Origin: Tubulanus polymorphus
Taxonomy: Eukaryota > Animalia > Nemertea
Direction of reading: 5' to 3'
Assembly: GCF_964204645.1 (NCBI RefSeq)
Contig: NC_134034.1
Coordinates: 7,886,962 to 7,950,961 of the forward strand
DNA: 64,000 nt
Both the position numbers and the translations under genes were made by a program. Position 1 is the first letter of the stretch. Each line of letters begins with the position of its first letter. This document shows, in pieces, positions 45-35,233 of this stretch. The notes under the pieces are model-generated. The model had not been told where the DNA came from. It saw only the letters and a program-made list of their open reading frames with translations, and ran no database searches.

Positions 45-263
45 TTAATCCTCTAAATCATTTTCTAAATTAACTTTTTTATTCTTTCTATTTCTGTGAT
101 TGTTTCCATTTAACTTCTTTAATTTTTTACTCAATTTATTATTTTCATTCATCAAATCTTTTGAAATATTTTCATAGTAAAAGTATAATGCCGCCAATAT
201 TAATCCTCCTGCTACAAGATAATGTTTCAAATCACTTTTCCCAGTTGGGATGAAACCATCCAT
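45..263 (-). CDS. Small single-TM protein (72 aa) of element E0
   Basis: Hydrophobic LVAGGLILAALYFYY then basic/coiled tail. Near-identical paralogue at 29035-29247, both intact. Starts at TAAATAAATG. Confidence 0.65.
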   Translation of the reverse strand: MDGFIPTGKSDLKHYLVAGGLILAALYFYYENISKDLMNENNKLSKKLKKLNGNNHRNRKNKKVNLENDLED

Positions 264-282
264 TTATTTAGGAGAAAATTTC

Positions 283-753: not shown

Positions 754-807
754 TCTATTAGATATTTAAATCATTTAACTCAATTCAATAATTATAATGT
801 AGAATTG

Positions 808-1458: not shown

Positions 1459-2338
1459 TCAAATATAAATATTCACTGTTTTAAATATGAATTATTTCAC
1501 TCACACTTTACTCACACTTTTAATGTTTAAAAATCTAACTCATACAAATATAAATATTGAAATATGTTTAAAATATAAACCATTTCACTCACACTTTACT
1601 CACACTTTCTTCTAGTGAGTAGAAAATGGAAAATAAATTCGAGTGTGTGAGAATTTATTTTTCATTTTTATGAGTTTTGCGACTAATTCAAGTAGAAATT
1701 GTTGTTATTTTAACATTTTGGAAAATTTCTCGGGCTCGACCTTTCGACCTTTGGTATGAAAGCCTATTACCCCTATTACTCCTACTACAGTGTCTGCACC
1801 AATGGGCCGGGACAAGCTGCGGGAAGCTATATCAAAACGACGAGGGGTGGATTATGGGTGTCCTCAATTGACGAGTAACAGCACCCAAATTAAACAATGA
1901 ATACCGAATAAAGTATATGATGATATCGCTTTATTTTACGAAAAACTACCTTTCCATTCCGGTTTCTTTCCAAAACGGAAGCGTGTTCACAAAAATTACA
2001 AAAGAAGAGGGCGCCACAATACAGTGTTAACATCCAGTGGAGCCACCCTATCACACTTTCCCCGGGACACGAAAATATCGTCCCCGATATCTGTCCGTAT
2101 GGTAAATATATTACATAACGTTCCTGCACACATAAAGCAAGCCAACATACAAATTGACAGGCGACAATTATATACGCTCTAAGCATACACAAAACTACTG
2201 GACTGAGGGTGAAAAATACCCTAGAATCAACTAATATCATCCCTTTTTTCCTAAAAATTTTGCGATTTTTTCTAAAATATATATACACAATATATCATAC
2301 AGCTTCGAACAAACGTTTTTAACAGCGACATACGGATT

Positions 2339-5300: not shown

Positions 5301-7130
5301 CTAGGCGGGCTTTGTCCGTCATCACCAATCCTTCCATATTTCTAACTAGCCCACGGATAGTAGATTCCGCGCCTGCAGGTATAATTACCGCAGACGTAGT
5401 TTTCACCAAGTTCAGACTTTCCTGTCTCCGATGAACCCCTGGAACTTTTAAATAGTCCAAGACATAAGTCCCAATGAGTAGTGGAACCTTTTCATGATAC
5501 TCGGTTGGTTCTACGACGAACGCTATTATGGCTAAATCATCCACACCATCACGGTAATCGAGCTCCGCTATACCTTCATAAGGGAGTATTGAGTATCTCA
5601 TCACCAGCTACTGTGCTCAATTCCACCGGCAGGGCTAAGTCTTCAACTGGATGAATCTCAACACTATGATGGTGTTATTGCAGATATCTCTTAGAAACAG
5701 TAGATACGGGGGAACCACTATCTTGGAGTGACATGCATGGTTGGTTCTGTATGTACACGAGCTTTTCGCGGCGTGGACCTACTAGTTGCGTCTTGGGTTT
5801 CTGGAGGCTGTCTCCATTTTCCGCCTGGCCCCGCCTCCCTGACCAGGTTCCTCTGCGTTTTCCGGACACTGAGCTTTCATGTGTCCTTTTACTCCACACC
5901 TGTAACATGTTCTTTCTTCCACCGGAACCGTGGGAGGTCGGTTCTGTGGACCACCATTCCTCCACCTCGATGGTCTCCAGGTCCGTTGCTCTAGTTCCAG
6001 TCTCATTTTGTTCATTTCTCCTTCCATCTTCCGAAGTTTGTTAAGGATCATTTGCATCTCTTCCGATTTGGTTGTTTCGTTTACCTTGGTCTCGTTTACG
6101 AAAGTTTTCCTTTTATTCCGAGGTGATCTACTCTGCCTCATGGCCATGGGTGATTCGCTTTCAACTTTCCGGGCCATGGTTACTAGTTTCCTGAAGTTGT
6201 ACTCCTTTTCTTTGTACAGGCGGGTGGCCGCTTTCCCTTCTATAATTGACAGGCCTCTCCAGAACTGTATTTTAGCATATCGTCAGTCACCGGCACGGAG
6301 CCTCCCCCAGTAGCTTTTATTTTTGCAGCAATCTCCTCACGACTACTAGCATATATAGCAATGTTTTCGTCCTCTAGTTGTATGCACTGGTGAAACTTCA
6401 CGAAAATCTCCTCAGGGTCTAAAACTTCCCCGTACATCAGCTCCATCTTGTCTAGAATTCTCATAGGTGTCAACTCATCTTCGTCCTGGTATAAGTTAGT
6501 CAACACTCATAAAGCTGCTCCTCTTAAAGATGAACGGATCGCACGGAGGCACGTCAACTCGCTGAGTGTGGTGTCCTTTATTAACCCTCTCACTTCCTGC
6601 TTCCATTGGATATAGGAGATTTCTCCCTTAGCTTCCACCCCAGAGAAGATGCCAATCCTGGTATTCTGAAGAGCCACTGCGGTTATCCCTTCAGCTGCTT
6701 TTACTGGTGACTTTGGTGAGGGCGATTCTTGTTCACCATAATTTAATTCAGCTTTCACTTTACGAGTGCTGCGGAAACTCTACTTTGCGCCCCCGGTTTC
6801 ATGGCACTGAAACTCTTTACCATCAGGTCGACCATCGAATTATCCTAAGCTGTGCCCACCATATCTACCAAGAACTCTTCTTGTGACGGATCCAAAGGCA
6901 ACACACGAAAGGTAATTAAAACGTCTGCGACATTCACACTTTTACCATGGGCTTTAAGGGCCATGTTCGAAGACCCCGCATGTTTGAATACCAGAAAAAC
7001 TCCTTCCGGTACTTCTTTTATGGCTATAACTTTCCCACATTTCCTGAAGTATTCAGCGCAGTCGTCAGCTTGATGAGTTGTATGTATTATGATTGTGCGC
7101 CACCTGCATTTTCCGAAATAATGTTCATAT
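2339..7130 (-). mobile_element. Decayed Ty3/Gypsy LTR retrotransposon internal region (PNMA-like gag, protease, RT remnant, RNase H, integrase)
   Basis: Gag FSGVEAKGEISYIQWKQEV and CYRCGVKGHMKAQC knuckle; protease DSGS; FLGFSGFYRRYV; RNase H YASRSL..LEFLALKWAV..TDNNPL; integrase HDRLGH..CNTC, MDFLK, SNQGRNFES, YNNTPH. Many frameshifts; LTRs not resolved. Confidence 0.92.
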
Positions 7131-15013: not shown

Positions 15014-18000
15014 TGTGTTTGTTTGAGACAGTAAAGGTCAGTTAAGGTCGCGTAAAACTCGATAAAATCTTCAAGCGACACAGCGAACGATCTCCTTTCC
15101 TCCACAGCGAACGCTTACTCCGAATGTCAAGTGTGAGTCCAGCATACGGATAGGAGTGTGTTATATACTTGTTGTTCCGTCGTTGGCGGTCCGTGTTTTA
15201 GTGTAGACAGTTATGGAGAATATATTCTGAAACCGTACTCTAATAGTTGGCTCCGTTTTTGAAGTTCTACTGGATATTTCTCTCTAATATTATATTCCTG
15301 CGATTGATGAGATGAAACATATGGTCCCTCGGAGGCGGATGATGTAAAGATTTGATGTTTGGATGACTACAGATGACCAAAATTTGATGTTTAAGCGAAA
15401 ACACGTGAGTCGACGTCGTGTTAATTTCTGATGAAACGAAAAATTGATAAAAATCTAACTATTGATGCAGAATTGACTTGAATACGAATTAATACTGTCG
15501 AAAAATTGTGTGCTTGTAGTATTAATCTTAAAAAGTCAGTTTCGAGAAAAATAAAGCAGGGTGCTGATGAAAATTTGATGGATTGCTAATTACCGAAAGA
15601 AGACGATCGAGATTGGAATATACCGACCAGAAAGATACAAAATTTCGTAATTGACCATGAATGCTGAACAGAGAAGAGATTTTGAACTTAGAAAACGAAA
15701 AAGGACACCACTCAAAGCAAAAATCACAAGAGTGAAGTCCAAAATTGATGAAAAATTGTTAGATCAGAAGAAATTAGATGAGAAGGAATTACAAAAATGC
15801 AGATGGGCATTAGGGGAATTAGCTGATGCATTTAAAGCAATCTCAGAATTAGATACTGAGACATCTGAAATTATTCTGGAGATCGATGAAGTGGAGTACA
15901 ACAAATTTGTGTTAGAATCTGATGAATATTTAGAAGAATTGTCCCTCTTTATATTCAACCTTAAACAGATTTTAGAACAGCGAGAAAAAAGGCCGGCAGG
16001 TATTGACAAGAGCCAGGACAAGACAAGAAGACCACATCGACAAGTAGAATCGACCTCAGATGAAGAAAGCGACGAGAAACGTCATTCCGATACTTCAACG
16101 GAATCAGAAGATGATAAACCACAACGTAATGTTTTTCAGGGTTTGAAAAAACCAGAATTATCAACATTCGATCGTCAAAAGGAATACTACCATGACTGGC
16201 GAAACCAATTTGATGTTTTTGTAGGGAACACAAAGCTACCCTCAAAAACGAAGATGATGATGTTAAAAAACTGTTTAAAGGGGAAAGCATTGAAAATCAT
16301 TGGTAACCTTGGTTACACAAAAACAGAATATGAAGCAGCCTTGAAGAAATTGGAGCTGAAATTCGGTGGTGAAAAACGTCTCATTAGACAGCACTTAGAT
16401 AGATTAATGGAAACAAGCTCAATTACAGAAGGGAATAATAAGGCATTGGAAATATTTTCAGATAGACTATGTGACATGGTCACCAAATTATCCTTGAAAG
16501 GGAGTGGAGGAGAGTTCGAAACTGACAGTGCCTTATATATTCAAGTTCAAAAGAAAGTACCAGAAAAAATGTTGGTAGACTTTCATCGTCATGTTAAGAG
16601 TTCTGGAAAATCGGATGACCTCCAGGAATTTTCGAATTGGCTGGCAGAAGAGGTAGCATATTTACTTGAAGCTGAAGAAACAAAAGGGTCTAGTACTAGA
16701 ATTCCCAGAGAAAAAAAGACGGTCTTTCAGTACTGGTCTTATGAGAAAACAAGGTTGTTACATATGCGGAAAGAACCACAAGTTGACGGAATGTGATAAC
16801 TGGACGAAAATGGCTGTAGGTGATCGATGGGAACGTGCAAAAATGTATAGTATGTGTTTTAAATGTCTAAATAAAGGACATAGAAGTTGTCAGTGTAGAG
16901 AAACCAGATTCTCTGGATGCAGAATTGAAGGTTGTCAGGATAATAAGCGACGCCATACACACCTTCATCACCCTAAGGAATCTAAACATAATGCAAATGA
17001 AGAGCTGAACCCTCAGGAGGTGAACCCTCATGCAACACATCAAAGAGGTAGATGTCCTCCGGGGCGAGTAGCTTTGAGAATAGTGCCGGTTAGATTGGTT
17101 GGCGCTCGAGATCAAGAAATAATCATCAACGCCTTCCTGGATGACGGATCTGACTCATGCTATATATCTGATGATGTAGCAATTGCTATGGAGTTGGAAC
17201 GGGAGTCAGAACGCCATATAACAATGAATACTCTGGCTGGTGCGAGTGAATTGAAAAGTCGAAAAGTCAGTGTGAAACTGAAAAGTTTGGATGGGAAGGT
17301 TGATGTACTGCTTCAACCATGGGTGATGGACTCTATGTGTAAGGGTATCAAACCAATTGATTGGAGGCGACACGAGGCTGATTGGGGACATTTGAAGGAT
17401 ATTGAGTTTCCAAAACTACCGTCTACTGAAGTAGACATGTTGATAGGTGCAGATCAACCGGAATTGATGGCGGCCATTGAATAACGTCGTGGTGATGTAG
17501 GGGGTCCAGTGGCCCGGAAAACCCCACTGGGCTGGACAGTGATTGGAAAAGTTTCAAATGGATTTAGTGAAAACCAGAGTTTTACGACAACTCATGCGTA
17601 TAGAACTGAAGTTAGGTCCTTCGATATAAGAACTGATGATTGCTTGAGAAAGATCTGGGATCAGGATCTAGATTGCGGAAACCTCCATTAAAAAAGTCGG
17701 AGATAGATATGAAGTCCAAATTCCCTGGAAAGAGGAGAAGAGGTATTTACCGAATAATTTTGAAGATGCTAGTAAACGCCTGATGATGCTGGAAAAACGG
17801 TTTTTCAAAGACGAGGAGATTGCTCGACGATACAGAGATGTGTTTATGGCGAACGTAGAGAAAGGTTATTTGCAGAAAGTGTCAGATGTTGACTTAGAGA
17901 AAAATAGTAGCTGGTTTCGACCACACTTTCCAGTCGTTCGTGAAGATAAGACAACAACAAAAGTTCGCATTGTACATGATTCTGCTGCCAAAACTGGAAA

Positions 18001-18682
18001 TATGAGTTTGAATGATGTTATGATGAATGGCCCTAATCTACAGAATAACATAGTAGAAATATTGATTATGTTCCGAACAAAACCGGTGGCATTGGTAGGG
18101 GATATTAAGGAGATGTTTTCTCAGGTCCAAATGTTTGAAGATGATCGAAGGTACCATCGATTGTTATGGCGTGATGATACACACTCGCCAGTTGAAACTT
18201 ATGAAGCAACTAGATTGATGTTTGGGGACAAGGCTTCGCCATTTCTGGCACAGTTTGTTTTGAGACATCATGTAAACTGCAGTGAAGAAAACCCAAGAGT
18301 GTCTGAAGTTATTCACAAGCAAACCTATATGGACGATTTAATTACATCAGTGGAGAATGTTGTGGATGCGACCACTCTAAGAAGCGAGTTATCATCTGTA
18401 TTATCTGCTGCAGGATTTGATGTAAGACGATGGTGTAGTAATGTTATGGCTGTTTTAGATGGCTTACCTCTTGGAGATATTGAGGATTGCTTGAAGATAG
18501 TTGACAAAGACAATGCAAATATGGAGACTTTGGCTGTACGATGGTTTGCAGTGGGAGATTACTTGACGTACTCAACTCCGGCTAGTTGCGGTAGGCGTGG
18601 AGTCCCGACAAAGCGTAGTCTGTTGAGTTGTATTGCCACACTCTTTGATCCACTGCAGTATTTGGCACCAGTTGTTATACCC
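15014..18682 (+). mobile_element. BEL/Pao LTR retrotransposon, 3'-truncated (LTR end 15319, PBS 15322, gag-pro-RT 15651-18682)
   Basis: PBS TGGTCCCTCGGAGGCGGAT after ...AAACA; DUF1759-like gag; CYICGKNHKLTEC/CFKCLNKGHRSCQC knuckles; protease LDDGSD; RT KVRIVHDSAA, GDIKEMF, YMDD; LFDPL. LTR start is a guess. Confidence 0.9.
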
Positions 18683-19278
18683 ATCAGCATCTAGGACGTC
18701 TTCTTCAAGCGTCAAGACTGCAACCAGTTCATCATTCAAAACATCGATCTGATTCACTGTAGCGTCAATCTCCAACAGGACGCACTTCAGCTCCTCGGGT
18801 CTAGCGCTTATCTCGATCAAATCATCGGCTTTTTGACACTGGCGAGTCAGAACGCCCTTTCTTGCACCACGGGTTCGACGGAGTTTCTTCAGCTGGGCTT
18901 CTATTTCGTTTGTCGACATCTATCTGGCTCGAGGGACCAAAAATGTGGAATACGCGACCACCAGTGAAACTGACAACGACGACGACGACAGAAAACTAGA
19001 TGTCCAGCTGGAGAGAGATCTTTATTTGACTGCCCAGTACAAATTCTACACAGGTTTATATACAGGCAAAAATCATGAAGTATTAAAATAGCTTTTATCA
19101 AAATAGTGCCGGTTTAGGGTTTTTAACAATATAATATACTAGGTAACCGATCAATTTAGAGAGGACTGTATGGTAGGTTTTAGCCAAATGCTATGAATTA
19201 GAGTTCAACAATTGGATTAAATAAACACAATAAGATCAGAAGTTACAACCGAGGAATATTCAATAAATGTCTCTAACA
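18677..19278 (-). mobile_element. 5' end of a second BEL/Pao element: LTR 19278-18944, PBS 18939-18922, gag start 18919
   Basis: Minus strand reads TGTTAGAG...CA with TATA and AATAAA, then TGGTCCCTCGAGCCAGAT and gag MSTNEIEAQLKKLRRTRGARKGVLTR. The LTR edge interrupts the E2 ORF exactly at 19279. Confidence 0.85.
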
Positions 19279-20602
19279 GATGCAGTAATTCCGGGTAAAG
19301 CTGCAGCAGATTTTTTAAAAAGTTCCCATAGATATTTTGCTAATTTCTTTAAACCATCCTTTATCTTGTATAGAATTATTATTATTCGGTGGTTTATCCG
19401 GTTTATTAGGTTTTGGTGTAGATTTTAATGAATTTGATATTGCTAAACCTATTGTTGTGAATACCATAGTTACAGCTGTTAAAATTGAAAGAATTGTTAT
19501 ACCTTCTAGTTTAAATAATAATCTTATTCTATCTTTCAATGATTTTTTAGAATCTGGTTTTATTATTAAATCTTTAAAAATAACTTTTAATCTATTAATA
19601 TTATAATCATATGATTTTATAATAATTTAATTTCTTCTTTCTGTAATTCTATGTTTTATTCTAAATCATCTTTTTCTTTTTCTAAATATGCATTTCTTTT
19701 TTTTAATTTAATTTCTTCAATACCTTTATTATCTATATCTAATTTTAATTGTTCTATTTCTTTAATTTTATCAGTTCTATCTTTTTCTAAAGTTCTAATT
19801 TTAAAATCTCTTATACTTTTATCATGCGCAAATTTATCAGCTTCATTTCTAATACTAATAATTTCTCTAATTGCTTTATCAGAAAATATGTTTAAATCGT
19901 CTAATTGTTGATCTGTTGCATCAAGTAACCCATTTGGTAAAAGTTTTTCAATTTTAACTTTATTTGATTTAAGTTTACCAGTTTTGGAAGTTATATTCTG
20001 TTCAGAAGTTGTTTCTGTTTCGAAATTATTATTGATTATTTCAAATTATTCATTAATTCTTTGTTTAAATACTCTTTTATTTTGATTTATTTCTTCTTGT
20101 GTAACATTTTCTATTTCATAACTATTACTTATTCTTTTTATTCTAGATGGTTCTAAATTACTCAAAGTTGATTCTGCTAATATTTTATTTGATTTTTATA
20201 AGAGATATCAATATGATAATCATGTTTCAAATGATAGTAATATTCATCATCTAAAGATTTTAATTCTCTAACTAAATACCTAGCACCTCTATCATTGATA
20301 TTATATCCAGATCTTTCAAATATAGGTTTGAAATTATAAATTTATTCATTATATTCTAAATTTTGTTTTATTAAATCTGGATTTTCATTTTCGGGATTTA
20401 TTCTCGATTTAGTTCTTCTATCAAACTCGTCTGTTGAAGGGGCTTTAGAACCACTATCTGCTAAATTAGAATTATATGCTGATCGACCATCACTATCAAT
20501 TTTAGTTTCATTAATATCAGGTTGTGGTTCATCAGGTATAAATCCTTCATTATTATTTCCCATTTCTCCCACTTCATAAGCTTCTCCACCTTCTACATCC
20601 AT
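19279..20602 (-). pseudogene. Long acidic/coiled-coil protein with C-terminal hydrophobic helices (E2)
   Basis: Fragments MDVEGGEAYEV..., LKDRIRLLFKLEGITILSILTAVTMVFTTIGLAISNSL, KKSAAALPGITAS; frameshifted and cut by the BEL LTR. Confidence 0.65.
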
Positions 20603-20618
20603 TTATATCATATAAAAA

Positions 20619-21932
20619 TTAAAATTTAAAATATAATATTCCTCCAATTACAATTCCTGTACAAGATATAGCTAATTTAGTATTTTCATGAGATTTATTA
20701 TCATTATAAGTTTTAATTATATCATGTTGAATAATATCAGTTTTCATATTTTCTGATGAATTGTAATATTTTATTTTAGAATCATTGATTAATTTGATAT
20801 TCTTTTTTTTTAGTTTCAGTTGATTGAATATGTTTTTTAATTTTTTCACCTTCCATTAATTTTGGAGCAGTAATAATCTTTTTATTTATATCATTTAATC
20901 CAAACTTATTATATATTGTTGCAGTTTTAATTAGATTATTATAACCAATTATATTTCCCATCTTTAATATTAAATCATCAGAAATAATTAATAAATTAGG
21001 TCCTATACAATAATTTAATCTTACATGTGATTTATCTAAATAATTTTGATATCTTATAATGTTTTCTGGAATTGATCTATTTTCATCATTATGAATGAAA
21101 TCTTCACTTTAAATTGTTTTTGTGTATCAAATGATGTATTTAAATTTCTAATTATTGGGGATCTTGTTTCAACTTGCGCACCTAGAATACATATCAAATA
21201 AGTTCTAATTTTCGGATTGATTTATTATTTGTATACCAGCTTTAGTAAATCCTTCACTATTTTCGAAAATAAAATAAACCCAACCATTATTATTTTCTTG
21301 TTTTAAATTATCATAGAATTTCGGTAATTTATTGAAATTTAATGTTTCTAAATCCTTAGTTTCTATTTTACCATAACCTAATTTATTATTATAGATATTA
21401 AAAAAAGTATCAGATGGTATGGGAAGTGCACAATATTCTGCAATCTTTTTAGGGCAAGGAGGTGATCTTATTGTTCCAAGTTTTGTTCTAAAATCAGAAT
21501 GGGTCTCTTATTCATTTAATAAAGGGGTCTCTTATTCATTTAATATCAATCTTATTTGAAAATAAGTATGAAATCTAAATAAACTTTGAATCAATTTATA
21601 TTTTAAATTATTCAAATGATCATTCCAACTAATTCCACATCCTGTTGTTGCACAAAAATCAGCAAAATTTAATTGGTTCTGCCATTACTTCATATTAGAT
21701 TTTAATAAACATTGTTTTTCATCTTTCGATTTTCTAAAATTAATTAAATATACATGAAATATATTTTTCATCTTTGCATTAAAATTATCAGTTTCAGCAA
21801 AATAAATATCTAAATTAATTAATGAATTCAAAACAAAATTTCTATATGTGATATTTTTATTAAAATCTATTGCTGGAATATTATATTAATTGATTTATTA
21901 TATTGAAAAGCTTTTGGAAAACTATCTACCAT
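20619..21932 (-). pseudogene. Unknown ~430-aa protein with C-terminal TM (E2), candidate structural protein
   Basis: Fragments WQNQLNFADFCATTGCGISWNDHL, FRFHTYFQIRLIL, ILGAQVETRSPII, LNYCIGPNLLIISDDLILKMG, terminal LAISCTGIVIGGILYFKF. ATG at 21932 in TATAAATG; several stops/frameshifts. Confidence 0.6.
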
Positions 21933-21948
21933 TTATATGATAAAAAAA

Positions 21949-22382
21949 TTAATAATTTATTAATACTTTTAATAATTTATCTTGTTCTTCAACTGTTATA
22001 TTACCATTTAAACTCATTATATAATCTAATGTATTTTTTAGTTTATTGGTTTCTTTTAAATTAGATTTTATTTTTTCTTTATAACTTTTTATATTTAATT
22101 TTGAACTTATTCCGGTTAATACACTTGATGATAATCCTAGCACGCCAATTGATATAGCTAAAGGTGTTAATTGACTGAATATTGCTAGAAATGTTATTAC
22201 GGAACTAATTGTAACTGAACTACAAATAATAAAATAATATATAATTTTACTTTTTAAATATTTTTTCTTTTTTATCTTTAAGTCACTTTCAAATTCTAAT
22301 ATTTGTATTTCCAAATATAATTTTAATTTAGTTTTATTTATATCATGAGGAATAATATCAATATTATCATTTTATCAACCAT
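21949..22382 (-). pseudogene. Two-TM membrane protein (E2), frameshifted near the N-terminus
   Basis: IIYYFIICSSVTISSVITFLAIF and PLAISIGVLGLSSSVLTGIS then coiled coil; ATG at 22382 in TAAATAAATG. Confidence 0.6.
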
Positions 22383-22401
22383 TTATTTAGAAAAGAAATT
22401 A

Positions 22402-22824
22402 CTAATTAGTAAATCTATATGCTACAAATATAACAATAACTGTTCCACCTAAAATCCAAATTATTTCATATTTCTTCTGTTCACTACTTGGTGTATAATA
22501 ATCTGATAATTTAGGTTTATATACATGTAATTTTTCTTTATTTGTTACTGCGTTATATAAACTCATAGCTTCATCGACTGATTGAAAATCTCTATGTGCA
22601 ATTATCTGATTATATAATTCTTTATTGATGTAATCCATATAGTTTTGCCTCTTTCATCCATATTCTTCTGCAGCTTTATTATATTTCTCTAATGCTAAGT
22701 TATGTATTCTTTGTTCTCCTAATGAACTATTTTTATCAATATGCTTAAACAAATATCCACCACCAGTAAATGCCAAAGCGTTAACAATTGCCGATCCTAT
22801 AATAGTTATAATTGCAGATTCCAT
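22402..22824 (-). pseudogene. ~140-aa protein with N- and C-terminal hydrophobic segments (E2), one in-frame stop
   Basis: MESAIITIIGSAIVNALAFTGGGYLF...G*KRQNYMDYINKEL...LSDYYTPS...IIWILGGTVIVIFVAY, in frame with ORF 22402..22638. Confidence 0.65.
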
Positions 22825-22848
22825 TTATTAAGTAAAAAAATTACGCAT

Positions 22849-23070
22849 TTATATAGGAGGAATATATTTCTGTTTTTTTATATAATCAATAGTTAAATTA
22901 GATAAAGTAACTGCTAACGTTAATTTTAAAATATCATTGTTATCAAATCTATCAACATTAACACTTCCCATTCTAAATACTTTTTTTAATACCATTGAAT
23001 AACTAACAGTTCCAACTGAAAGTAAGGCACCATTATATAATCCAGTTATTATCCACTTATTATCACTCAT
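22849..23070 (-). CDS. Small hydrophobic protein (73 aa, E2)
   Basis: Intact ORF with two hydrophobic stretches; starts at TAAATAAATG; short gaps to neighbours. Confidence 0.6.
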   Translation of the reverse strand: MSDNKWIITGLYNGALLSVGTVSYSMVLKKVFRMGSVNVDRFDNNDILKLTLAVTLSNLTIDYIKKQKYIPPI

Positions 23071-23438
23071 TTATTTACCAAAATAATACCTATCTTCAAA
23101 AATTTAGTTAACTTAGTTATAATTATTTCAACATTTATTTCATTACTACTTTTATGATTATCATATATTTTAGATAATATGTTTTTAATATCATCGATTA
23201 TTCCATCTTCATTCAATTCATAATATTCTAAAGGCGTTTTCATTAAATCAATTACTTTTTCTATATTATAATTTTCTTGAAATTTCTTCTTATAATCATT
23301 AATGCATTTTAAATGATTTACTTTTAATATCAGTAATTACATCATTTAGTTTAATTCTCATTTCTTTACCACGTTTAAAATCAAACCCAAAACATATACT
23401 CGGTCCTCCTGTTATATTCATATTTATATAGTGAAAAA

Positions 23439-23802
23439 TTACTCTTTACATCTTATAACTAATTCATAAATTACAGGAAAGTTATTCAAATCAATTAAAT
23501 ATCCATTATGATTTCTAATTTCTAATTTAAAATTATTAAATTTTGTAATGCATGTTTTGAAATCACATTCTGTTAAATTATAATGTATTTGCATTCCAAA
23601 TTCTTTAACATTCTTCAATGGTAAAATATTTAATACACTAGAATTACAAGTTGTATCTTTAGTTGCTTCGACACAATTTACAATTCACACAATCTACACA
23701 ATTCTTAAATTCCCTATCTAATTGTACTAGTAAATTATGTGATTTATAATTTATCAGTCTTCTTGAATCAACAAATATTCTGTATTCTTTTAATTCTACC
23801 AT
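23439..23802 (-). pseudogene. Minor capsid (penton-like, single jelly-roll) protein fragment (E2)
   Basis: C-terminal SSVLNILPL...FGMQIHY...FNNFKLEIRNHNGYLIDLNNFPVIYELVI resembles the Polinton/virophage penton C-terminal pattern; N-half frameshifted. Confidence 0.6.
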
Positions 23803-23816
23803 TTATTTTACATATT

Positions 23817-24170
23817 TTATTCGAAATCTATTTCATGGTGCCCTTTTTCATTCTTACCTTTATATATGAAATAGAAATCTCCAGAACATAATTCTTCTAA
23901 ATCTTCACTTGATAATCTATGAAATCTATCCGGTAAATATGTTCTGAATTTATATTTATTTCCTTTTAATCCTTCATATTCTAAGTGGATAACTAATTTA
24001 TCTCCATATTTGTTAGTAACTGTATCAATATTAGTAATTAAATATTTTTTATGAATTGTTAGTTCATTTAACTTCTTAAATTTATAATCTACAGATTTAG
24101 CATTTGTGATATCTTTTATTCTATCTAGAAATGATTTGTTGTTCTCACTTTGTGCTTGTTTACTCTCCAT
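23817..24170 (-). CDS. 117-aa protein next to PolB, possible OB-fold ssDNA-binding protein (E2)
   Basis: Intact. KYLITNIDTVTNKYGDKLVIHLE...FRTYLPDRF looks beta-rich; the function is inference. Confidence 0.5.
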   Translation of the reverse strand: MESKQAQSENNKSFLDRIKDITNAKSVDYKFKKLNELTIHKKYLITNIDTVTNKYGDKLVIHLEYEGLKGNKYKFRTYLPDRFHRLSSEDLEELCSGDFYFIYKGKNEKGHHEIDFE

Positions 24171-27100
24171 TTTAATAACGTATTTTTTATTAAAATTTGA
24201 TTAACATGTAATAATCCTTTTCATAATCTCATTCTCTTTTGTTTCTTCTCTTTTAAATTTTAAGTATTCATCTAAATTGCAACCATACGCGACTGTATGA
24301 ATTCCATCATCTAAAGTATATCTTTTATCATCGAAAGGAATCAAATTTATCCTCTCTATCTCTTCAATAAACATTTCGTCTTCTGATCTTAAACATTTCA
24401 TCTTATGTTTTCTAACTTCTTCATTGAATATACAATTGATGTAATCTTTGAAATGAATATTCTTTTCTACTACGCTTTTGGTAATTCCTTTTAACTTTTT
24501 AGCTTCATGTTCCTTAGTTCTATAACTATACATTTTAGATCGAATTCCAATGAACTCTATCATTTCTACACCTCCTAACTCATCTTTGAATTTACCGGGC
24601 ACCGTTTTATTATCATTGTTAAACATTGTTCATGATCTTTAGGATAATTACTCAAGTCGAAATGATGTTTTAATGTTTTTAAATCATCTGTTATATTATT
24701 AGTTTTTATCTTTAATATGTAACTGTCGGTATCAAAATATTAGATTTCTATATGCTTTTCTCCAAAATGAGGTTGTAATACGTTATAGTAAAATTCATAC
24801 ATAAGTAATTTTGATATTTCTAAAACTGAAGCACCAACATAAATTGGTTTATTTAATTTCATAGAAGTTCTCTTCATTTTAACTGCAGCTAAATTTTCAT
24901 CAAATATTCTGTAACCGATAAATTTAGGATATGTTTGTAAATGTCTAATTCTTTTACCATTGCTAACTAACTCAATATCATTTCTATTTCTGATATTCTC
25001 ACAAGTTTTTCCATAGAATTCATTAACTTGAAGAAATCTTTTTCGAAATCTGTTTTAGCTTTAGTTCTCTGTTTGGTGTTAAAATCTATATATTTTTCTA
25101 ACCATTTAGATTGACTGAATGAAATATATCTATGTACTTTTTTAGGATCATTCCTTGATTCAAATAGAATTTTAACATCCGATAATGCACTACATAATTA
25201 TATTTATCTTCCTGAGTTACCATCAACTTTTCTGTATGAATATGATTTTCAAGTTTAATTCTTTTTTGATAATTTGATAATTCTTCATGCGTTAAAGTTT
25301 TATGTTCGGGGCAGTATGCTAGATTTCTAGATTTAAATTTTTTATCTTCAGGATATTCTAAATCTACAACAAAAAAGTAACCAGTATCTGAATCATCTGC
25401 AATATCTAGAATTCTTTTCTTCCAATCAAATTTCTCAATTTGTAAAAACTTCAGTTATTTGAAATACTCCATAAGGCTGAGGCTCCATCATTACCCAACC
25501 ATATAAATTATTTGCATCTATATATAATAACATATCCAGGGATATCATTTACATTGAAATATCTATCACCTAATACACCTGAAACACCTCCTCTTATAGA
25601 TTTTTCACATAATAATAATTGATCTATATTTGTTAACAAATCCATTTTATACCTGTAAATTTCAAACCACAGTCCCAAGTTAAACCTGGTGATGAATAAC
25701 AATGACATGGATCAACATTAAAATATTTTAGATTAACGTCTCTAAACCTTTCATATATATTAGCTAATAATGATACATCTGATTTTAGATATAAATCTAC
25801 TAATTGTCCATGATTTTTCATTCCAAAATGATTCCAAATATTCAATGTTCTAATATATACTTCATTTTTAACATATTCATTTTTTAATTCATCACAAAAT
25901 TGTTCTTTTAATAATTCAGTTATGTTGAAATCATTATGCGATTTATAAAAAACTATATGGAATTGCTCCATTGTATCTCATTAATTGAAAATCATCATTA
26001 TTTGGATAGTGTTGTTGTAATATTTTTAATTCATCATCAACTAATGATTTTGATAAATTATCTAATGAACTAAATCTATATGAATCTATAAATCTTAGGC
26101 ACCCAAATTGGAAAGATATATAATTCTCAAATGTTTTAGCTAACATTTTAAATTTATAAGTTGGTATTTTATCTTTTGATCTATTTGAATTTACTCTTTC
26201 TATTTCATTATTGATTTCTTCTATTTTATGGCACAGTTGCTTGGTGAATAAATGTGCATCATACCCTGATAAATTATGAAATATAACTGAAACAAAGTTC
26301 ATTTTCTTTGCATGTAAGTAACAATTCTCATGCGCCGCACCTTTAAACTTTCGATTCAAATGATCATGGTCTCTTACTTTTTTATCTTTTAGATTAAATA
26401 TCTTTTCACAATAATAACATTTATCTGCAAACTCAAATTCGTCTTTATCTTCTTCGTTCATAATTATTTCTTTATTTGTATCTAATAGTTTACTAAATTT
26501 GATTTCATACTCAATTGATAAGTCACAAAAATGATTTATAACATTTTCATTTCTATAATGATAATATTCACTTTTAATTAGTTCTGGATAATCAGATTTT
26601 ATATATAACCCGAAAGCTGCAGCACTTTGACGAATCTTTTTAATAGTATTTGTTATTAGAGGATCTGAATAATCAATTACATCATTTTCATTAGAATTTA
26701 ATTTCTTTCGTTTATAATATATTTCTTTTCTATCTTGGTCAGTTAATTCTTTATTTAGTGATTCAAAATCTCCATATATTACAAATGGTACTTTATTCTT
26801 GTAATCATATTTTTCAAATTCTTATATTTTATCCTTTTCATTTGGTAAAACTATTTTACAATAATCATGATTTTCACATAATTGTTTATGATTTAATAAT
26901 GCACTTTCGGTTCTGAATTTAGTTATACATTTTCTACATAGATATATTTTATTATCAAAATCATTTTCTGATTTGAAAAATAAATCAATTCGTTTAATCC
27001 ACGTATAATGATTCTCATTATATAATATATCTATAACATCATTTGAATCATAATCTTTTGGTAAGTATAGTGGTTCTAATGTATAATGTTTCATATTATT

Positions 27101-28085
27101 ACCTTTTGTTCTTGGTAATTTGACTAAATCAAATACATTTATATTTATATTATTATCTCTTTCTATTTTTGGGATATTTTTAATGCTAACAGGATAACTG
27201 CCTATCTTATAATTATTTTCAAATGGTTTATAATTTGATACTCTACAAATATTATCAGTTGGAGGATGTAAGCAACTAATTATTGACCATAGAAAACATT
27301 TATCATCAGAATTTTGTACATTTATAACAGCATTAGTTTTAAATGGTAATTTGATATAACTTGATCCATTAATGTTATCATGTTTATAATATAATAAATT
27401 ATTTTCATCAATTGGTTTTGATTTAGTTACCTTATTATATTTTGTGTTATAAACATGTTAAGTCATAGATATTATTTCATTGAATATTAAACCAGATCCT
27501 TCAAAATATTTCTCTTCTATTTTACTTTTTATTTCATTATAACATTTATCTAATTTATCATCTAATTGTTTTTTTGAATTAATATGTTGTGAATGAGAAT
27601 TTATATTATATATTGGTTTATCTTCAGATTTTAAAAATGTTACCTAAACTGATATACTAATCTTAGGGTATTCTACACCAGTAATTATTTTTATAATATT
27701 TTTCATATTTTCTAAATGTTTTTTATTTTCTTCTAATGTTTTACCTTAATGAAATTTAAATTCAATGGCAGCTCAGTAATAGGGAATATGGGGGTTCAGA
27801 TCAAAGGTCGTAAGGTCGAAAAATAAATTCTCGCACACTCGAATTTATCTTTCGACCATCCAACCTTTGATCTGAACCCCCATATTCCCTATTACTTTAA
27901 GTTTAAATGTGTTAAATTTTTGATTTTAACATAAAAAGTACGAGTAATTAACAAGTGAAAACTTGCCTCGAGAAAACAGTTAATATTTATATTTTTATGT
28001 GTTAAATTCTTATCTTAACATAAAAGTAACGAGGAATTAACGAGTTGAAGAAAATATCAATTTGAATAAAAAATTTGATATTAAA

Positions 28086-28379
28086 ATGGAAGCAAATAAG
28101 TACTACTGTCCGACATGTAAAATCAATATAGATAAATCTAAAAAATCGAGACACAATAAAACTAAATCTCACTTAGAGAATAAATTAAAGTTAAAATATA
28201 AAGATGATATATTAGAAACTAAATAAGATGAATTAAAGAATGAAAAAGAAATATATAAATGTGATACATGTAATCAATCATTCAGTGAAAAAAGATATCA
28301 TAAAGAACATTCTAAGTCTAAAACTCATATTAGAAATATGAATAATGAGTTGAATGATATAAAAAGTAACGAGTATTGA
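28086..28379 (+). pseudogene. Stand-alone double zinc-finger ORF (E1), copy of the PolB N-terminus; inverted copy at ~29828-30163
   Basis: MEANKYYCPTCKINIDKS..H.....H..YKCDTCNQSFSEKRYHKEH....H, closely similar to 30556..30945; one in-frame stop in this copy, frameshift in the other. Confidence 0.75.
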
Positions 28380-28415
28380 AGAAAATATCAATTTTAATAA
28401 AAAAATGACTAATAA

Positions 28416-28991
28416 ATGAATGAACAGATACCACAGTTTAAAGATATCGATTTAAATGAATTAGAAAAATATTTTACAATTAACAATTTCATTCCTATTA
28501 AAGATTTGATTAAAACTGCGCGTCTTCGTTTTCAAGTGAAAAATATTACTGAATTAATGTTTAAAAATCATTATCTAATAATAGAGTTATCGAATGATAA
28601 AGATAAAATCTTATTCAATACAATAATTCCAAAATTCACAACATTTCATGAAATAGATAAACATTTAATAATTACAGATGAAATGCAAACACTTTTTGAT
28701 AATGAAAATTCACATAAAACAATATTTTTACACTTACGTTATTGCCCTTTCAGAGAATGCTATGTAATATTTTTCAGAGTAGAAGAAAAAAGATTAACCC
28801 CCGCCATTCCAATTGAAAAATCATTCGAAGATGTTGGAATTCAATGTAACTTAGACAATAAAATCGAAACACCTAAATATGAACCTAATGAAAAAGTGTT
28901 ATGTAATTGTGGAAAATATTATACTCGAAGCAATAAATCACACCATCTTAAATCAAAATATCATAACTCAAAAATAATGATTCAACTCTAA
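28416..28991 (+). CDS. Unknown 191-aa protein with C-terminal zinc-finger-like motif (E1)
   Basis: Intact ORF, TAAATG start, C-terminus homologous to 808..1458. Confidence 0.7.
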   Translation: MNEQIPQFKDIDLNELEKYFTINNFIPIKDLIKTARLRFQVKNITELMFKNHYLIIELSNDKDKILFNTIIPKFTTFHEIDKHLIITDEMQTLFDNENSHKTIFLHLRYCPFRECYVIFFRVEEKRLTPAIPIEKSFEDVGIQCNLDNKIETPKYEPNEKVLCNCGKYYTRSNKSHHLKSKYHNSKIMIQL

Positions 28992-29034
28992 TTATTTAAT
29001 ATTTTATAAACTGTTTAATTTTTCTTTTAATTAA

Positions 29035-29247
29035 ATGGAAGATTTTAGCATTCCAATTGGGAAAAGTGATTTGAAGCATTATCTTATAGCAGGAGGGTTA
29101 ATATTGGCTGCATTATATTTCTATCATGAAAATATAAGTAAGGATCTAATGAATGAAAATATTAAATTGAGCAAGAAATTAAAGGAGTTAAATGGAAATA
29201 AAAATAACAATAAAAAAATTAATGATTTAAAAGAATTAGAGGATTAA
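29035..29247 (+). CDS. Small single-TM protein (70 aa, E1)
   Basis: Paralogue of 45..263; TAAATG start. Confidence 0.65.
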   Translation: MEDFSIPIGKSDLKHYLIAGGLILAALYFYHENISKDLMNENIKLSKKLKELNGNKNNNKKINDLKELED

Positions 29248-29288
29248 GACAGAATCTTTTAATTTAATTTATTTTATATATTTTAACT

Positions 29289-29513
29289 ATGAAAATGAGT
29301 GAAAATATATTGAACTTATTACATCTGATATATAAAAATCAACAGAATATGAAATCAATTATTATGCTTACAGGTTTATTTTCTTTCTCAGTTTACAGTT
29401 TGAAACAGTTGTTAGAATTCTATGATAATTGCAAAATTAAATATACAAAATTAAAAGATAACGTAAATTATATTTCAGATCGAATAAATAATATTAAGTG
29501 TTGTGAAATTTGA
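29289..29513 (+). CDS. Small hydrophobic protein (E1), 3' end cut by the inversion junction
   Basis: MSENILNLL...IIMLTGLFSFSVYSL; homologous start region at window positions 1-45 (minus strand). Confidence 0.5.
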   Translation: MKMSENILNLLHLIYKNQQNMKSIIMLTGLFSFSVYSLKQLLEFYDNCKIKYTKLKDNVNYISDRINNIKCCEI

Positions 29514-31128
29514 AAGGGCAATAACGTAAGTGTAAAAATATTGTTTTATGTGAATTTTCATTATTAAAAAGTGTTTGCATTTCATCTGTAATTATTAAAT
29601 GTTTATCTATTTCATGAAATGTTGTGAATTTTGGAATTATTGTATTGAATAAGATTTTATCTTTATCATTCGATAACTCTATTATTGGATAATGATTTTT
29701 AAACATTGATTCAGTAATATTTTTCGCGCAGTTTTAATCAAATCTTTAATAGCAATGAAATTTTTAATTGTAAAATATTTTTCTAATTCATTTAAATCGA
29801 TATCTTTAAAATGTAGTATCTGTTCATTCATTTATTAGTCATTTTTTTTAAATTAAAATTGATATTTTCTTCAGTACTCGATACTCTTTTATTGTTTAAC
29901 TCATTATTCATATTTCTAATATGAGTTTTAGACTTAAAATGTTCTTTATGATATCTTTTTTCACTGAATGATTGATTACATGTATCACATTTATATATTT
30001 CTTTTTCATTCTTTAATTCATCTAATTTAGTTTCTAATATATCATCTTTATATTCTGACTTCAATTTATTCTCTCAGTGAGATTTAGTTTTATTGTGTCT
30101 TGATTTTTGAGATTTATCTATATTGATTTTACATGTCGGACAGTAGTACTTATTTGCTTCCATTTTAATATCAAATTTTTTATTCAAATTGATATTTTCT
30201 TCAACTCGTTAATTCCTCGTTACTTTTATGTTAAAATAAGAATTTAACACATACAAATATAAATATTCACTGTTTTCTCGACGCAAGTTTTCACTTGTTA
30301 ATTACTCGTACTTTTTATGTTAAAATCAAAAATTTAACACATTTAAACTTAAAGTAATAGGGAATATGGGGGTTCAGATCAAAGGTTGGATGGTCGAAAG
30401 ATAAATTCCGTCGAGTGTGCGAGAATTTATTTTTCGACCTTACGACCTTTGATCTACCCCCATATTCCCTATTACTCAGCTGGTCCAATATCACTTTTAA
30501 ATGCTTCGGTTATTTCTATTTCTTTTTTTATTATCTAATGAATTGATATAATTTCTTACATCTTCCATGTATGGTCTTTTATTTTATTGTTTAATATATT
30601 TTTTATTCTTTTAATTGTCTTCTGTTTCTCAGCATTATCATTATTAAAATAATCTTCACCTATAATATCATTATTGATATTTGTAATATGACTTTTAGAT
30701 TTTAAATGTTCTTTATAATATCTTTTGTCGCTGAATGATTGATTACATGTATCACATTTGTATATTTCTTTTTCATTCTTCATTTCCTCTAATTCAGTTT
30801 CTAATATATCATCTTTATATTTTAACTTACATCTATTCTCTAAATGTGTTCTAGTTTGATTATGTCTTGAGTTTTGGGATTTATCTATATTGATTTTCCA
30901 TGTTGGACAGTAGTACTTCTTATTTGCTTCCATTTTAATATCCAATTTTCTATTAAAATCGATTTTATATGTTATTCATTATATATATGAACATTTTAAG
31001 AGTAAATAGGAATAAGTTGTTCTAGATTAAAGGTTGAGGGGTCGCATTCATAAAAAATGAAAAATTTATCATTTTTTATGAATTCGACCTCTCGACCTTT
31101 GATCTAGAACAACTTATTCCTATTTACT

Positions 31129-34100
31129 TACAATGAACAATATACTTATGTTTATGATTTTGTGCTAGTATTAATTTTTGTGTAAAACATGATCTTTCGG
31201 TTTAATTTTTTTTCTGATATTCACTTATATTACTATCATCTACGACTAAATTTTCTGGGCAATAATGTAAGTTTCTTGTTTTAAACTATATGTTATCAGG
31301 ATATTCTAAATCAACTACAAAGAAATAACCAATTGGTGCATCATCTTTTAAACTCAAAATTGCGCTTTCCCAATCACTTCTGTAAATATAACATTTTTAC
31401 ATGGTTTTACATAGCCCACCCATAAAGATAATTATCGTCGATATATCGTAATTTATATTCATCATTTGCTTTAAAATGCCTCCCATGCCCCCACAAATTC
31501 CACCTCTTATAGATTTTTCAAACAATAATACCATGTCTGGTTCTTTTAATAAATGTAATTCTACATTTGTATATTTTAAACCACATTGCCAGGTTAAACC
31601 AGGACTTGAATAACAATAACAAGGGTCAACATTAAAATGGTTTAGATTAACTTCTCTAAACTTTTCAAATATATCTGCCAATATCATAATATCTGATTTT
31701 AAATATGAATCAACTGATTCGCCATGATTTTTAAAATTGAAATGATTCCATTCATTCAACGTTTTATTAAAGACTTCATCTTTCACATACTCATTCTTTA
31801 ATTGATCATAAAACTGTTAATTCAATAATTCTGTTTTTTTGAAATCATCGTGCGTTGTATAAAATAAATATGGTATTGCACCTTTACATCTTAATAATTT
31901 GAAGCCATGTTCATCTGGATAATAATAACGGGTTATTATAAAATCATTGACAACTAAACCCTTTGCTAAATTCTAACGAACTTGCTAGAAATCTAAAAGA
32001 ATCTGAAAATCTAATGCAACCAAATTGAAAGGAAATTTAATTTTCAGCTGTCTTAGCTAATAGTTTAAAATCATATTTTCTTACATTTGTGTCATTTATA
32101 GCATTATATTCTTCTATTTATTGATTGATTACACCTGATTTTCCTGATAGTTGTTTTATAGATGAATGGGTATCATAACCTGATAAATTATGAAATAATA
32201 TTGGTACGAAGTTAACTTTCTAAGCTTGTAAGTTGCAATCTTCATGATCAACTCCACGAGATTTTGCATTTAAATGATCATGATCTTTAACTTTTTTATC
32301 AAATGAATAAGAACGTTTTTCGCAATAACAACAATGAGTTGCATAATTAAAATCAACTTCATCTTCTTTGGTCATAATTATTTTTTTTTATTTAATGATT
32401 GTGCAAAATCACTTTCTAATTCAATTATTTTATTACAAAATTCGTTTACTACATCTTCACCTCTAAAACAAATATATTGACTTTCATATAATTCTGGATA
32501 ATTCCATACGCAGCAGCTCTTTGATGAACTTTTTTAATTGTATTTATAATTGGTGGGTCTTGTATTGTGTCTTCATTTAGTTCATTTCCTTTATCCATTG
32601 ATTTTAGAATTTGTTTTTGTTGTATATTTCTTTTCTAGCTTGGTCATTTAATTCTTTATTCAACGATTCAAAATCTCCATATATTACAAATGGAACAATA
32701 TTTTTAAATTTATGATTAGTAAATTTCAACTTATAAAATATTTTTCTGTTGGCATTATTAATTTACAAAAATCGTTATTATCACATAACTCTTTATGTTT
32801 TAATAATGCATTCTCTGTCATACATTTAGATGAACATTTTCTGCATAGATAAATTTTATGATGATGATCACTTTCTGTTTTAAAGAATATGAATCTATTT
32901 GTTTTAACCACATATAATGTTCATCTTCATCTTTTTATAGTATAATGAATCTATAACATTTTCATCATCATAATGTTTTGTTAGATATAATGCTTCCAAT
33001 GTATAATCATAAATATTTCCACCTTTTGTCTCTGGTAGTTGCATTAATTCGAATACATTTATTTTTAAATAATTAATTTTTATAGTAACTGGGTATTGAT
33101 CAATTTTATATAATGATTCATACTTCCGATAATCTGTTACTCTACAAACATTGTCCACAGTTGGGTGTAAACAACTAATAATTGACCATAGAAAACATTT
33201 GTTATCTTCATTTTGAACATTTATAACTGATTTCGTTGTAAATGCTAATTTAAGATAAGATGATGCTTCAATATCCTTTTCTGTTGTAAAGTTTGAATCA
33301 TTTGTAAACATTTTATTACTTTTTGATGTTTTATTTTTTTTGTATGATAGATATTTAAATCTAAAAATGTAATTTCATTCAATGATAAACCAGAACCTTC
33401 AGAATATCTTTCTTCAATATGACGTTTAAATTCATTAAATATTTTTTCTAACTTCCCTTTGATTTGTATTTTTGAAAGTATTTCTTCAGAGTGTGTTTGA
33501 ATATTATTATCCATTTTTTCTTCTGACTTTATAAACTTACTTTCCAAGAGGCACTTATTTGTGGATATTCAACATCTGTAACAAAGTCCATAAATTTTTC
33601 CATTATTTCAATATATTTGCTATAATCTTCTATTGTTGTTCCTTTAAAAAATCTAAATATTATAGCTGCCGGTCCAATTTTACTACATGTATGTAGTGTT
33701 TCTAAGATTTCAATTGTATCTTTTATATCTAGTGAAGCAATATAATTTTTAACATTTTCCATATAAGATTTATTTAAAATAGATTTAGTTTTTTCTATAG
33801 TTTTTTTTTACATGTTGATGTTTTTCATCAAAATAATCTATTCCTAAAAAATTTTTACTTAAATTTTTGTTGATGTTTTTGTGACTCAAGATGCCTATCA
33901 TAATTCCTTTTACTTATAAATTCACTACAAACATAACATTTGATTTCATCTACATTCATATTTTTAATCGTTCTTTTCATTCATTTGAACTTTCTGGTGT
34001 TTCAAAATCTATAACATTTTTTTTCTGATGATTTGTGTTTTTTCATGCCTTGATTTTTGTGACTTATCAATATATTTTTTACAGTATTGACATTAATATT

Positions 34101-34150
34101 GATTTTTATTATCATCAATTTTTTTTTCTTGTTGTTCACTGTCCCCTATT
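31129..34150 (-). mobile_element. Polinton-like element E3: decayed N-terminal two-thirds of pPolB, interrupted by E2
   Basis: KCFLWSIISCLHP, YGDFES, KDHDH, FHNLSGYDTH, YLKSDI, SIRGG; coding stops at ...KYIVHC against the E2 terminus. Confidence 0.88.
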
Positions 34151-34156
34151 TATTAG

Positions 34157-34660
34157 AGGAAAATCGATAGAAAGGCACGTCTCGGTCCCAAAATGCCGTT
34201 CAACGCGAGAAAAGCCGTTTTCTCGTCGATTTTCGTTGTATCGGAATAATGACTAATTCGATATGCAAAAGCGCTCAAATCGACGGGAAAGCCACATTTC
34301 GGCCCAAAAACACCGTTCAGCGTGAGAAAAGGCGTTTGCTCGTCGGTTTTCGTTCTATCGGAAAAGTGATTAAGTCGAGACGCAAAAACGCTCAAATCGT
34401 CAGGAAAAGCACATTTCGGACCGAAAACGTCGTTCGTCGCGAGAAAAGTCGTTTGCGCGTCGATTTTTCGTTCTTTCGGAAAAATGACAAAGTAGAAATT
34501 CAAAAACGCTCAAATCGCCAGGAAAGCGCATTTCGGCCCGAAAATCGATATCTGCAAAAGCGCCCTAATCGCCAGGAAAAGCGAACACAGCGTCCAGCGC
34601 GAGAAAAGTTGATTCTCGTCGATTTTTCGTTCTATCGGAAAAATAACAAGGTTGATATGC
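34157..34660. repeat. Diverged ~117-bp satellite-like tandem repeat, ~4 units
   Basis: AAARCGCTCAAATCG recurs at ~34268, 34385 and 34502; GCGAGAAAAG..CGTCGATTTT..CGGAAAA in each unit. Confidence 0.8.
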
Positions 34661-35233
34661 AAACTTTATGTTTTTACGTTAAACCCAAACAGTTTCTTTC
34701 AATCGGTGTCTCTATTCAAAATTAAAGTTCAAGTTGGAAAATTACCAATTTGAATCTTTTGGATTGACTGCTTGTTGGTTGCATCGTGATGAAGTAAACA
34801 TCCAATGGCTTCACTCTAGAACAGATTTCTCAAATTACATATCGCTTATTTTTTTTAATTAGAAAAAAATCCAATCAGAGTGACTTTTTACGGGAAACCC
34901 TCGATATATGTTCGAAATATCTGGCTTCCGAGTATATGTATATGCCATAACAGTAAGACCCTCTACATAGGTTTGTTGCTTTAAAGATTAAATGAACCGC
35001 GTGTTTATGCTCCTTCCTAATAATTTTCAATATCACCCCTGTAAACAAGCTTTCAAAAGTGTTAACAGAATAGCAAATGTATAGCGGATACATTAACAAT
35101 CAGTAAAATCCAAGCAAGTTCACGAACCGTGCCTCGTCGTGACAGCCGCTGGCTCCGTTGGTTTCCCAGTCGGTAAAAGTTTGCATTTTTTTTATATATA
35201 TATTCACGGACTGTTGATGATATAAAATCATAA

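Follow-up and report, generated by a model that had tools for sequence, protein, structure and literature searches.

The question raised by this locus is which RNA polymerase reads its genes. In a 64,000-nucleotide stretch of the Tubulanus polymorphus genome (assembly GCF_964204645.1, contig NC_134034.1, positions 7,886,962 to 7,950,961; hereafter the window, whose own positions are used throughout), an AT-rich block named E2 carries closely packed genes, most of which begin with TAAATG behind a run of T. The original prediction, made from the sequence, had recognised in this signal the late promoter of poxviruses, reported it also in two smaller elements (E0 and E1) and proposed an endogenised virophage-like hyperparasite of a pox/asfar-like virus. 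The data presented below indicated that the start signal is real, strong and clade-specific. They also indicated that E2 is, to judge from its genes, a left-truncated, decayed animal Maverick/Polinton. By analogy with known virophages, the E2 lineage is probably a virophage-like Polinton transcribed in trans by the pox-type RNA polymerase of a co-infecting pox-like virus. E2 and its genes are listed here, a slash marking the beginning of the start codon:

19275 to 31128, minus strand: E2, a decayed Maverick/Polinton in synteny with the related locus L001 (34-83% amino acid identity per matched piece)
19275-20602, start region 20600 to 20625, minus strand: 485-aa coiled-coil/membrane gene in several pieces; T-run and TAA/ATG
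20619-21932, start region 21930 to 21955, minus strand: conserved 442-aa gene, broken; T-run and TAA/ATG
21949-22382, start region 22380 to 22401, minus strand: 144-aa membrane-protein gene, frameshifted; T-run and TAA/ATG
22402-22824, start region 22822 to 22848, minus strand: 140-aa conserved Polinton gene (the marker gene) with one internal stop; T-run and TAA/ATG
22849-23070, start region 23068 to 23090, minus strand: 73-aa gene, open; T-run and TAA/ATG
about 23067-23421, start region 23419 to 23438, minus strand: ~120-aa gene, frameshifted; T-run and TAAAT/ATG
23439-23802, start region 23800 to 23816, minus strand: penton/minor-capsid gene; TAA/ATG without T-run
23817 to 24200, start 24170, minus strand: 117-aa open gene adjoining the polymerase gene; A-rich core and TAAA/ATG
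24201 to 30933, start 30933, minus strand: gene for a DNA polymerase B of the protein-primed kind (pPolB), in many pieces, with E1 inserted; A-rich core and TAAA/ATG

All ten positions named in the original prediction hold the sequence it described: TAAATG at 20602, 21932, 22382, 22824, 23070, 23802 and 263 (minus strand) and at 28416 and 29035 (plus strand), and TAAATATG at 23421 (minus strand). Its statement that most have a T-run upstream agrees with the run of at least four T found at 8/10 sites (at 23802 and 28416 an A-rich tract takes its place), and the short intergenic gaps it gave as ~15-30 nt measured 14-30 nt at the seven gaps of E2. Two further E2 starts, 24170 and 30933 (the first part of the polymerase gene), read TTAAA/ATG behind an A-rich tract. 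The nine gene starts of E2 comprise six TAA/ATG, one TAAAT/ATG and two TAAA/ATG, with TAAAT in seven of the nine. The eight starts from 20602 to 24170 are genuine, as tblastn with L001 proteins reached the N-termini of seven of the genes (query residues 1-17) and the eighth was fixed by gene order. Six of these eight are TAA/ATG, against 45 of 630 non-start ATGs in 19200-34150 (7.1%; P(at least 6 of 8) = 3e-6). Outside the elements, TAA/ATG was seen at 0/29 open reading frames (ORFs) of at least 100 aa and at 44/1660 ATGs. TAA before ATG, which the prediction proposed to compare with its background, is thus commoner at gene starts. Over the whole window the pattern was mildly enriched (12 occurrences against 5.4 expected; 2/100 shuffles reach 12), indicating that the signal resides in position at gene starts and not in overall pattern count.

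E2 stands out by its composition (GC 21-26%, against 32-48% in the flanks); its right terminus is intact, its left part is missing and E1 is nested in its polymerase gene. No major capsid, integrase or ATPase gene was found in the window's copy of this left-truncated element. We nevertheless assign it to the Mavericks/Polintons because L001, an intact syntenic relative of 11.5 kb and 20% GC, has the eight genes of E2 in the same order and then adds a capsid gene, an rve integrase (PF00665) and an A32 ATPase (PF04665), and because a penton gene is present in both; L001 also encodes a deoxynucleoside kinase (dNK). The E2 penton gene is partly deleted: window 23445-23787 matches the 254-aa protein of L001, of which residues ~50-185 are unmatched. 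The structural model of that protein (mean predicted local distance difference test, pLDDT, 77) found the mavirus penton as its best Foldseek match (E=1.7e-10). The L001 capsid gave a low-confidence model (pLDDT 56) that matched the PBCV-1 capsid at E=9e-12, along with double-jelly-roll fold matches. Capsids of the E2/L001 lineage align at 32-37% with those of other Polinton-type loci, and the capsid profile recovered 2203 representatives at E<=0.001, a widespread family; the alignment suggests that this capsid is not of virophage type (Virophaviricetes). E2 is a mainstream animal Maverick/Polinton and apparently not a virophage by descent. Of the hyperparasite in the original prediction, the promoter likeness was supported and helper dependence is drawn by analogy.

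The E2 polymerase gene specifies N-terminal zinc fingers and an endonuclease-VII-type insertion, together with what we take to be a vOTU-like motif. Window 24264-27604 matched the PolB of locus L063 by tblastn at E=1e-130, and the intact L063 protein carries PF03175 and PF02945. The 117-aa gene beside the polymerase possibly encodes a single-strand-binding protein, the nearest named Atlas cluster being the Phi29 single-strand-binding protein (score 0.84, a lead only). The BEL/Pao and gypsy-type retroelements in the flanks speak for an animal host, BEL/Pao elements not being known outside animals. Read depth in sequencing run X5 was ~110-600 over 19406-27868, against 15-25 on the flanking retroelement, most aligned reads being 90-95% alike, and the E2 family is therefore multi-copy.

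Relatives were searched with the 140-aa marker gene, which returned 12 proteins at 36-76% identity; the metagenome loci are the best 80 of 161, and nine of the 80 lacked a usable start. No relatives came from protein searches of viral contigs (broader capsid alignment included) and of genome contigs. Starts were defined by N-terminal homology to L001. TAA/ATG was found at 36/39 such starts in eight loci (L001-L007 and L011), one more being TAAAT/ATG, and the 39 include L001 7588, the downstream piece of a split integrase. It was found at 0/127 starts in the 63 other loci (0/14 in 7 loci of at most 40% GC and 0/113 in 56 GC-rich loci). A mechanical rule (first ATG of ORFs of at least 100 aa) gave 38/42 in the eight positive loci. 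A curated set of 54 starts, excluding L001 7588 and a low-complexity antisense ORF, had a TAAA-type initiator in 53 (48 TAA/ATG, 3 TAAAT/ATG and 2 TAAA/ATG).

The second half of the signal lies upstream. T occupies 71-90% of curated starts at -15 to -12, and the T-run is located at -16 to -12. A run of five T was present at 27/48 starts (shuffle mean 5.9, maximum 16 in 5000) and a run of at least four T at 34/48 (shuffle mean 13.4), with a spacer of 5-8 nt between T-run and initiator in 33/35 measured. Across 75 pairs of orthologous promoters, identity was 0.60-0.85 at -16 to -12 and 0.32-0.44 in the spacer; this comparison took TAA/ATG starts only, and the identity of 1.00 at -3 to -1 exists by construction. 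Between orthologous promoters the T-run is conserved and the spacer drifts freely. In the capsid tree, the motif-positive L001, L007 and L011 (20, 33 and 44% GC) form one clade (100/100), and L011 has the motif at 44% GC against a background of 1/171. The motif also occurs at divergent gene pairs, in L007 at both genes 28 nt apart, in L011 at 64 nt and in L001 at 72 nt. Sister Polintons (L008, L009, L012, L019, L038, L047 and L055) have a TATA-like sequence and an A-run directly before the ATG, which may be either a signal of asfarvirus type or just the usual context of starts in AT-rich DNA.

Since the motif tracks the capsid clade over 20-44% GC and occurs at divergent pairs, it cannot be put down to AT bias or to stop-start coupling. 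A chance product of 78-80% AT sequence would fit with TAAATG being common away from starts and with a whole-window count about twice expectation. Controls were the transposon ORFs of the window and related loci; among them, 24 hand-picked starts of AT-rich relatives had no TAA/ATG, two TAAA/ATG and one T5 run, although their upstream AT content (87%) exceeds that of motif-positive starts (82%). Chance was ruled out by these matched controls, and we give it next to no weight. The proposal that TAA serves stop-start coupling on a polycistronic RNA, or is an in-frame guard stop, draws on the tight packing of the genes and on gaps of 0-3 nt at 3/11 same-strand junctions of L001. It is nonetheless very unlikely: the other eight L001 gaps span 16-325 nt and none of the window's seven is shorter than 14 nt, divergent pairs carry the motif, and a T-run at fixed distance is left unexplained. 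As for a guard stop, the TAAAT/ATG and TAAA/ATG variants keep TAAA without an in-frame stop.

Both halves of the signal have counterparts in vaccinia virus. In published accounts, a late promoter of vaccinia consists of a T-containing core, then a spacer of 5-7 bp, then TAAAT(G/A) across the start; an intermediate one has an AT-rich core and TAAA separated by a 12-bp spacer, and the viral polymerase reads it directly (PMC5294985, PMC12917281, PMC4542343). According to the literature, polymerase slippage at such promoters produces 5' poly(A) leaders, TAAATG is retained in salmon gill poxvirus, and the asfarvirus late promoter consists of TATTT plus TATATA. The likeness to a late promoter put forward by the original prediction was upheld by the two-part spacing, the clade-wide conservation and the negative AT-matched controls: core, spacing and the TAAAT(G) on the start codon are shared, and the majority class matches the late-promoter layout. 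Of the two helper types it named, the pox-like one fits better than the asfar-like one because the motif, like that of poxviruses, runs into the ATG, and the asfarvirus late promoter differs. A minority class, with an A-rich core and TAAA(A)TG, precedes the E2 polymerase gene and its neighbour, the larger E1 and E0 genes and some divergent genes; it resembles the intermediate type. The division into late-type and intermediate-type promoters is a lead, because the A-rich class has no consistent gene function across loci. The system differs from vaccinia in that the promoters are predicted ones and stand on a non-poxvirus element in which no RNA polymerase gene was seen.

A lineage-specific nuclear signal with a chance resemblance to the poxvirus one was also considered, such as a poly(A) signal that extends into the following gene's start or a Pol II core promoter of compact form, with the element autonomous in the nucleus. 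This group gains short start motifs easily, as the sisters L008, L012, L019, L047 and L055 have their own TATA...AAAA/ATG, and about half of the starts spell AATAAA across the junction while many others read TATAAAT. A TATA box on the ATG, as is generally known, would put the Pol II start inside the ORF, and T at -3 departs from the usual eukaryotic purine, controls having 92% A there. A poly(A) signal is at odds with the divergent pairs, which have no upstream gene needing one, and with the coding strands of L001, where AATAAA is undepleted at 5.7 per kb, though the controls are undepleted too. A splice acceptor is excluded, since 0/54 starts end in AG. Motif-positive and motif-negative loci could not be told apart by depletion of AATAAA or of splice donors; TTTTTNT was scarce in L001 (5 against 10.2, P=0.003, one test of 20) and showed no significant deficit elsewhere. 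Overall we consider a nuclear signal unlikely.

A pox-derived RNA polymerase might instead be encoded by the element or by a sister cytoplasmic plasmid, with no infecting helper. The yeast plasmid pGKL sets the precedent, combining pPolB, an RNA polymerase of its own related to that of poxviruses, and a TAAAN initiator yielding 5' poly(A) leaders (PMC6211774), and no complete element of the motif-positive clade has been sampled. However, E2 and L001 together run from the right terminus through ~17 genes, and the 15 L001 proteins scanned had no match to an RNA polymerase family. The upstream element of pGKL is moreover of early type (ATNTGA), as against a T-run at late-promoter spacing here, and PMC6211774 describes such transcription genes as unreported in Polintoviruses. 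We rate this explanation as distinctly unlikely, below the nuclear signal and a little above stop-start coupling.

Transcription in trans by a pox-type helper is the simplest reading because no RNA polymerase gene occurs in the sequenced parts and because promoters are shared in mavirus and Gezel-14T; as published, shared promoters mark helper dependence in mavirus and Cafeteria roenbergensis virus (CroV), in endogenous mavirus-like elements (EMALEs) and in Gezel-14T and its helper PgV. In such a cycle, the helper's post-replicative machinery would start inside TAAAT and slippage would add a 5' poly(A) leader, so that no templated 5' UTR would remain; between the L007 divergent genes, 28 nt apart, there is hardly space for templated leaders. 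Polymerase and capsid would be the element's own products, made in the factory of the helper, and integration with a 6-bp target duplication would carry the element from one infection to the next, in the manner of mavirus and CroV. E0 and E1 would travel along as non-autonomous passengers keeping the ends and the same promoters. The fuller proposal, which we hold with about even confidence, is that the lineage consists of integrated provirophages of poxviruses or a pox-like family, with late and intermediate promoter classes and E0 and E1 as satellites, and that sister-clade motifs would point to other helpers.

Several observations weigh against dependence on a pox-like helper. A motif scan covering 20/64 parts of the viral-contig collection found no candidate helper, the motif being pervasive in none of 96 loci picked for one match (best 40%; 61/529 ORFs). 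All motif-positive loci fall in one clade of the marker-gene tree (a quick tree; SH-aLRT 91), to which L008/L009, lacking the motif at 6/6 starts, also belong; either the motif was lost at least once or this part of the tree is mistaken. The 54 curated starts are related orthologs and non-independent, and the positive set was partly defined after the motif was seen. Sampling of incomplete elements leaves room for an element-encoded transcription gene. All genes, the polymerase included, have a post-replicative-type signal, and first access of a cytoplasmic enzyme to the nuclear copy is unexplained. The dNK of L001 (10340-10981, PF01712) has three relatives in other assemblies (60-67% identical), and its matches are unnamed or named just deoxynucleoside kinases, with no clear gene exchange with poxviruses.

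Among known systems, animal Mavericks/Polintons (Polintoviricetes, adintoviruses) have in common with E2 the pPolB and penton, with L001 the rve integrase, A32 ATPase and double-jelly-roll capsid, and with E1 the inverted repeats beginning AG and the 6-bp target duplication. E2 and L001 differ by the pox-type start signal on nearly every gene, missing in 63 related loci, by terminal palindromes of 122-128 nt, by the L001 dNK and by the absence from the sequenced parts of a maturation protease: no family match to the adenovirus-type enzyme was obtained among the 15 L001 proteins, no complete element being sampled. Polinton-like viruses (PLVs) associated with entomopoxviruses were proposed as poxvirus hyperparasites in animals from their co-packaging in occlusion bodies (Barth et al. 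2024, PMC11296320). pPolB occurs in some of them, and a beetle chromosome contains one integrated relative (PMC11296320). Their capsids are described there as highly divergent and ungrouped, unlike that of the E2 lineage, a comparison made by description. The word 'promoter' is absent from that paper's main text and supplement, and 'TAAAT' from its main text; 'TAAATG' appears twice in the supplement, inside listed repeat sequences. The mavirus/EMALE provirophages of Cafeteria are likewise integrated pPolB and rve elements with helper-like promoters; theirs match the late promoter of the helper, and different types carry different motifs (PMC8547959). They differ in their protist host, Imitervirales helper, TCTA motif and virophage-type capsid, and their reactivation has been shown experimentally. 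The yeast pGKL shares pPolB and the TAAAN initiator, and is distinguished by its own RNA polymerase, its early-type upstream element and the lack of capsid and integrase (PMC6211774). No report of a poxvirus promoter in Polintons was found in the literature searched, which covered few subscription papers and no bioRxiv supplements.

If the inference holds, the E2 lineage would be a variant of the virophage lifestyle, entomopoxvirus-associated PLVs being known and a pox-type promoter in Polintons being apparently new. An integrate-and-reactivate lifestyle, possibly with an antiviral role, would extend from protists to animals. A pox-like virus would moreover be expected in a host from which perhaps none is known. 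Start motifs of endogenous Polintons would then preserve the identity of the large viruses they parasitised, and could bring to light pox-like viruses of invertebrates that have so far gone undiscovered. With a helper-specific promoter on almost all genes, the reading is open to direct test.

The remaining elements of the cluster and the terminal structures are the following:

27775 to 30476, no strand assigned: E1, non-autonomous element of 2.7 kb inserted in the E2 polymerase gene
1 to 1780, minus strand: E0, related to E1 and truncated where the window begins; gene starts at 263 (T-run and TAA/ATG) and 1428 (A-rich core and TAAAA/ATG)
31130 to 34130, minus strand: E3, directly next to the E2 terminus: a second polymerase gene, diverged, of which the 5' part is present; gene start unrecognisable
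31001 to 31128, no strand assigned: terminal palindrome of 128 nt at the right end of E2, from DNA folding
27775-27896 and 30354-30476, no strand assigned: 122-nt terminal palindromes of E1, from DNA folding

E1 has ~980-nt inverted repeats (95% identical). Its 6-bp target duplication (27769-27774 / 30477-30482) contains one mismatch, and the empty site is represented by 285 reads of run X5 that connect 27770 with 30479. Maverick/Polinton-type ends, with inverted repeats beginning AG and a ~6-bp target duplication, are present in E1; E2 keeps one end only. The original prediction had classed E0 and E1 among the pPolB elements, which did not hold: of the polymerase gene, E1 contains no more than the 5' portion with the zinc fingers, beside two small genes; its gene starts lie at 28086 (TAAA/ATG), 28416 and 29035 (TAA/ATG), and the part of E0 within the window has two related small genes. 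The 191-aa protein of E1 had no database homologs and weak Atlas matches, and its 70-aa neighbour did not match the 130-aa protein of L001. The palindromes of E2 and E1 are near-perfect and reach the last base (folding z = -19.0, -16.8 and -14.5); the E0 end (1650-1790) does not fold as a palindrome. Inspection by eye beside the palindromes gave no convincing poxvirus concatemer-resolution motif. A 24-nt tandem repeat array lies between the two E0 genes (window 218-827).

A third polymerase fragment lies 25 kb away, at about 58266-59460; together with that at 31128-34130, it indicates that these elements cluster and nest here. A satellite-like repeat of ~117 nt occupies window 34150-34700, and the two bins covering it had depths of ~460 and ~5200 in run X5. 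An unrelated 1.7-kb element at 46691-48438 has ~600-nt inverted repeats that are 96-98% complementary, and the Polinton cluster is flanked by BEL/Pao and gypsy-type retroelements (15657-18694 and 2339-5601).

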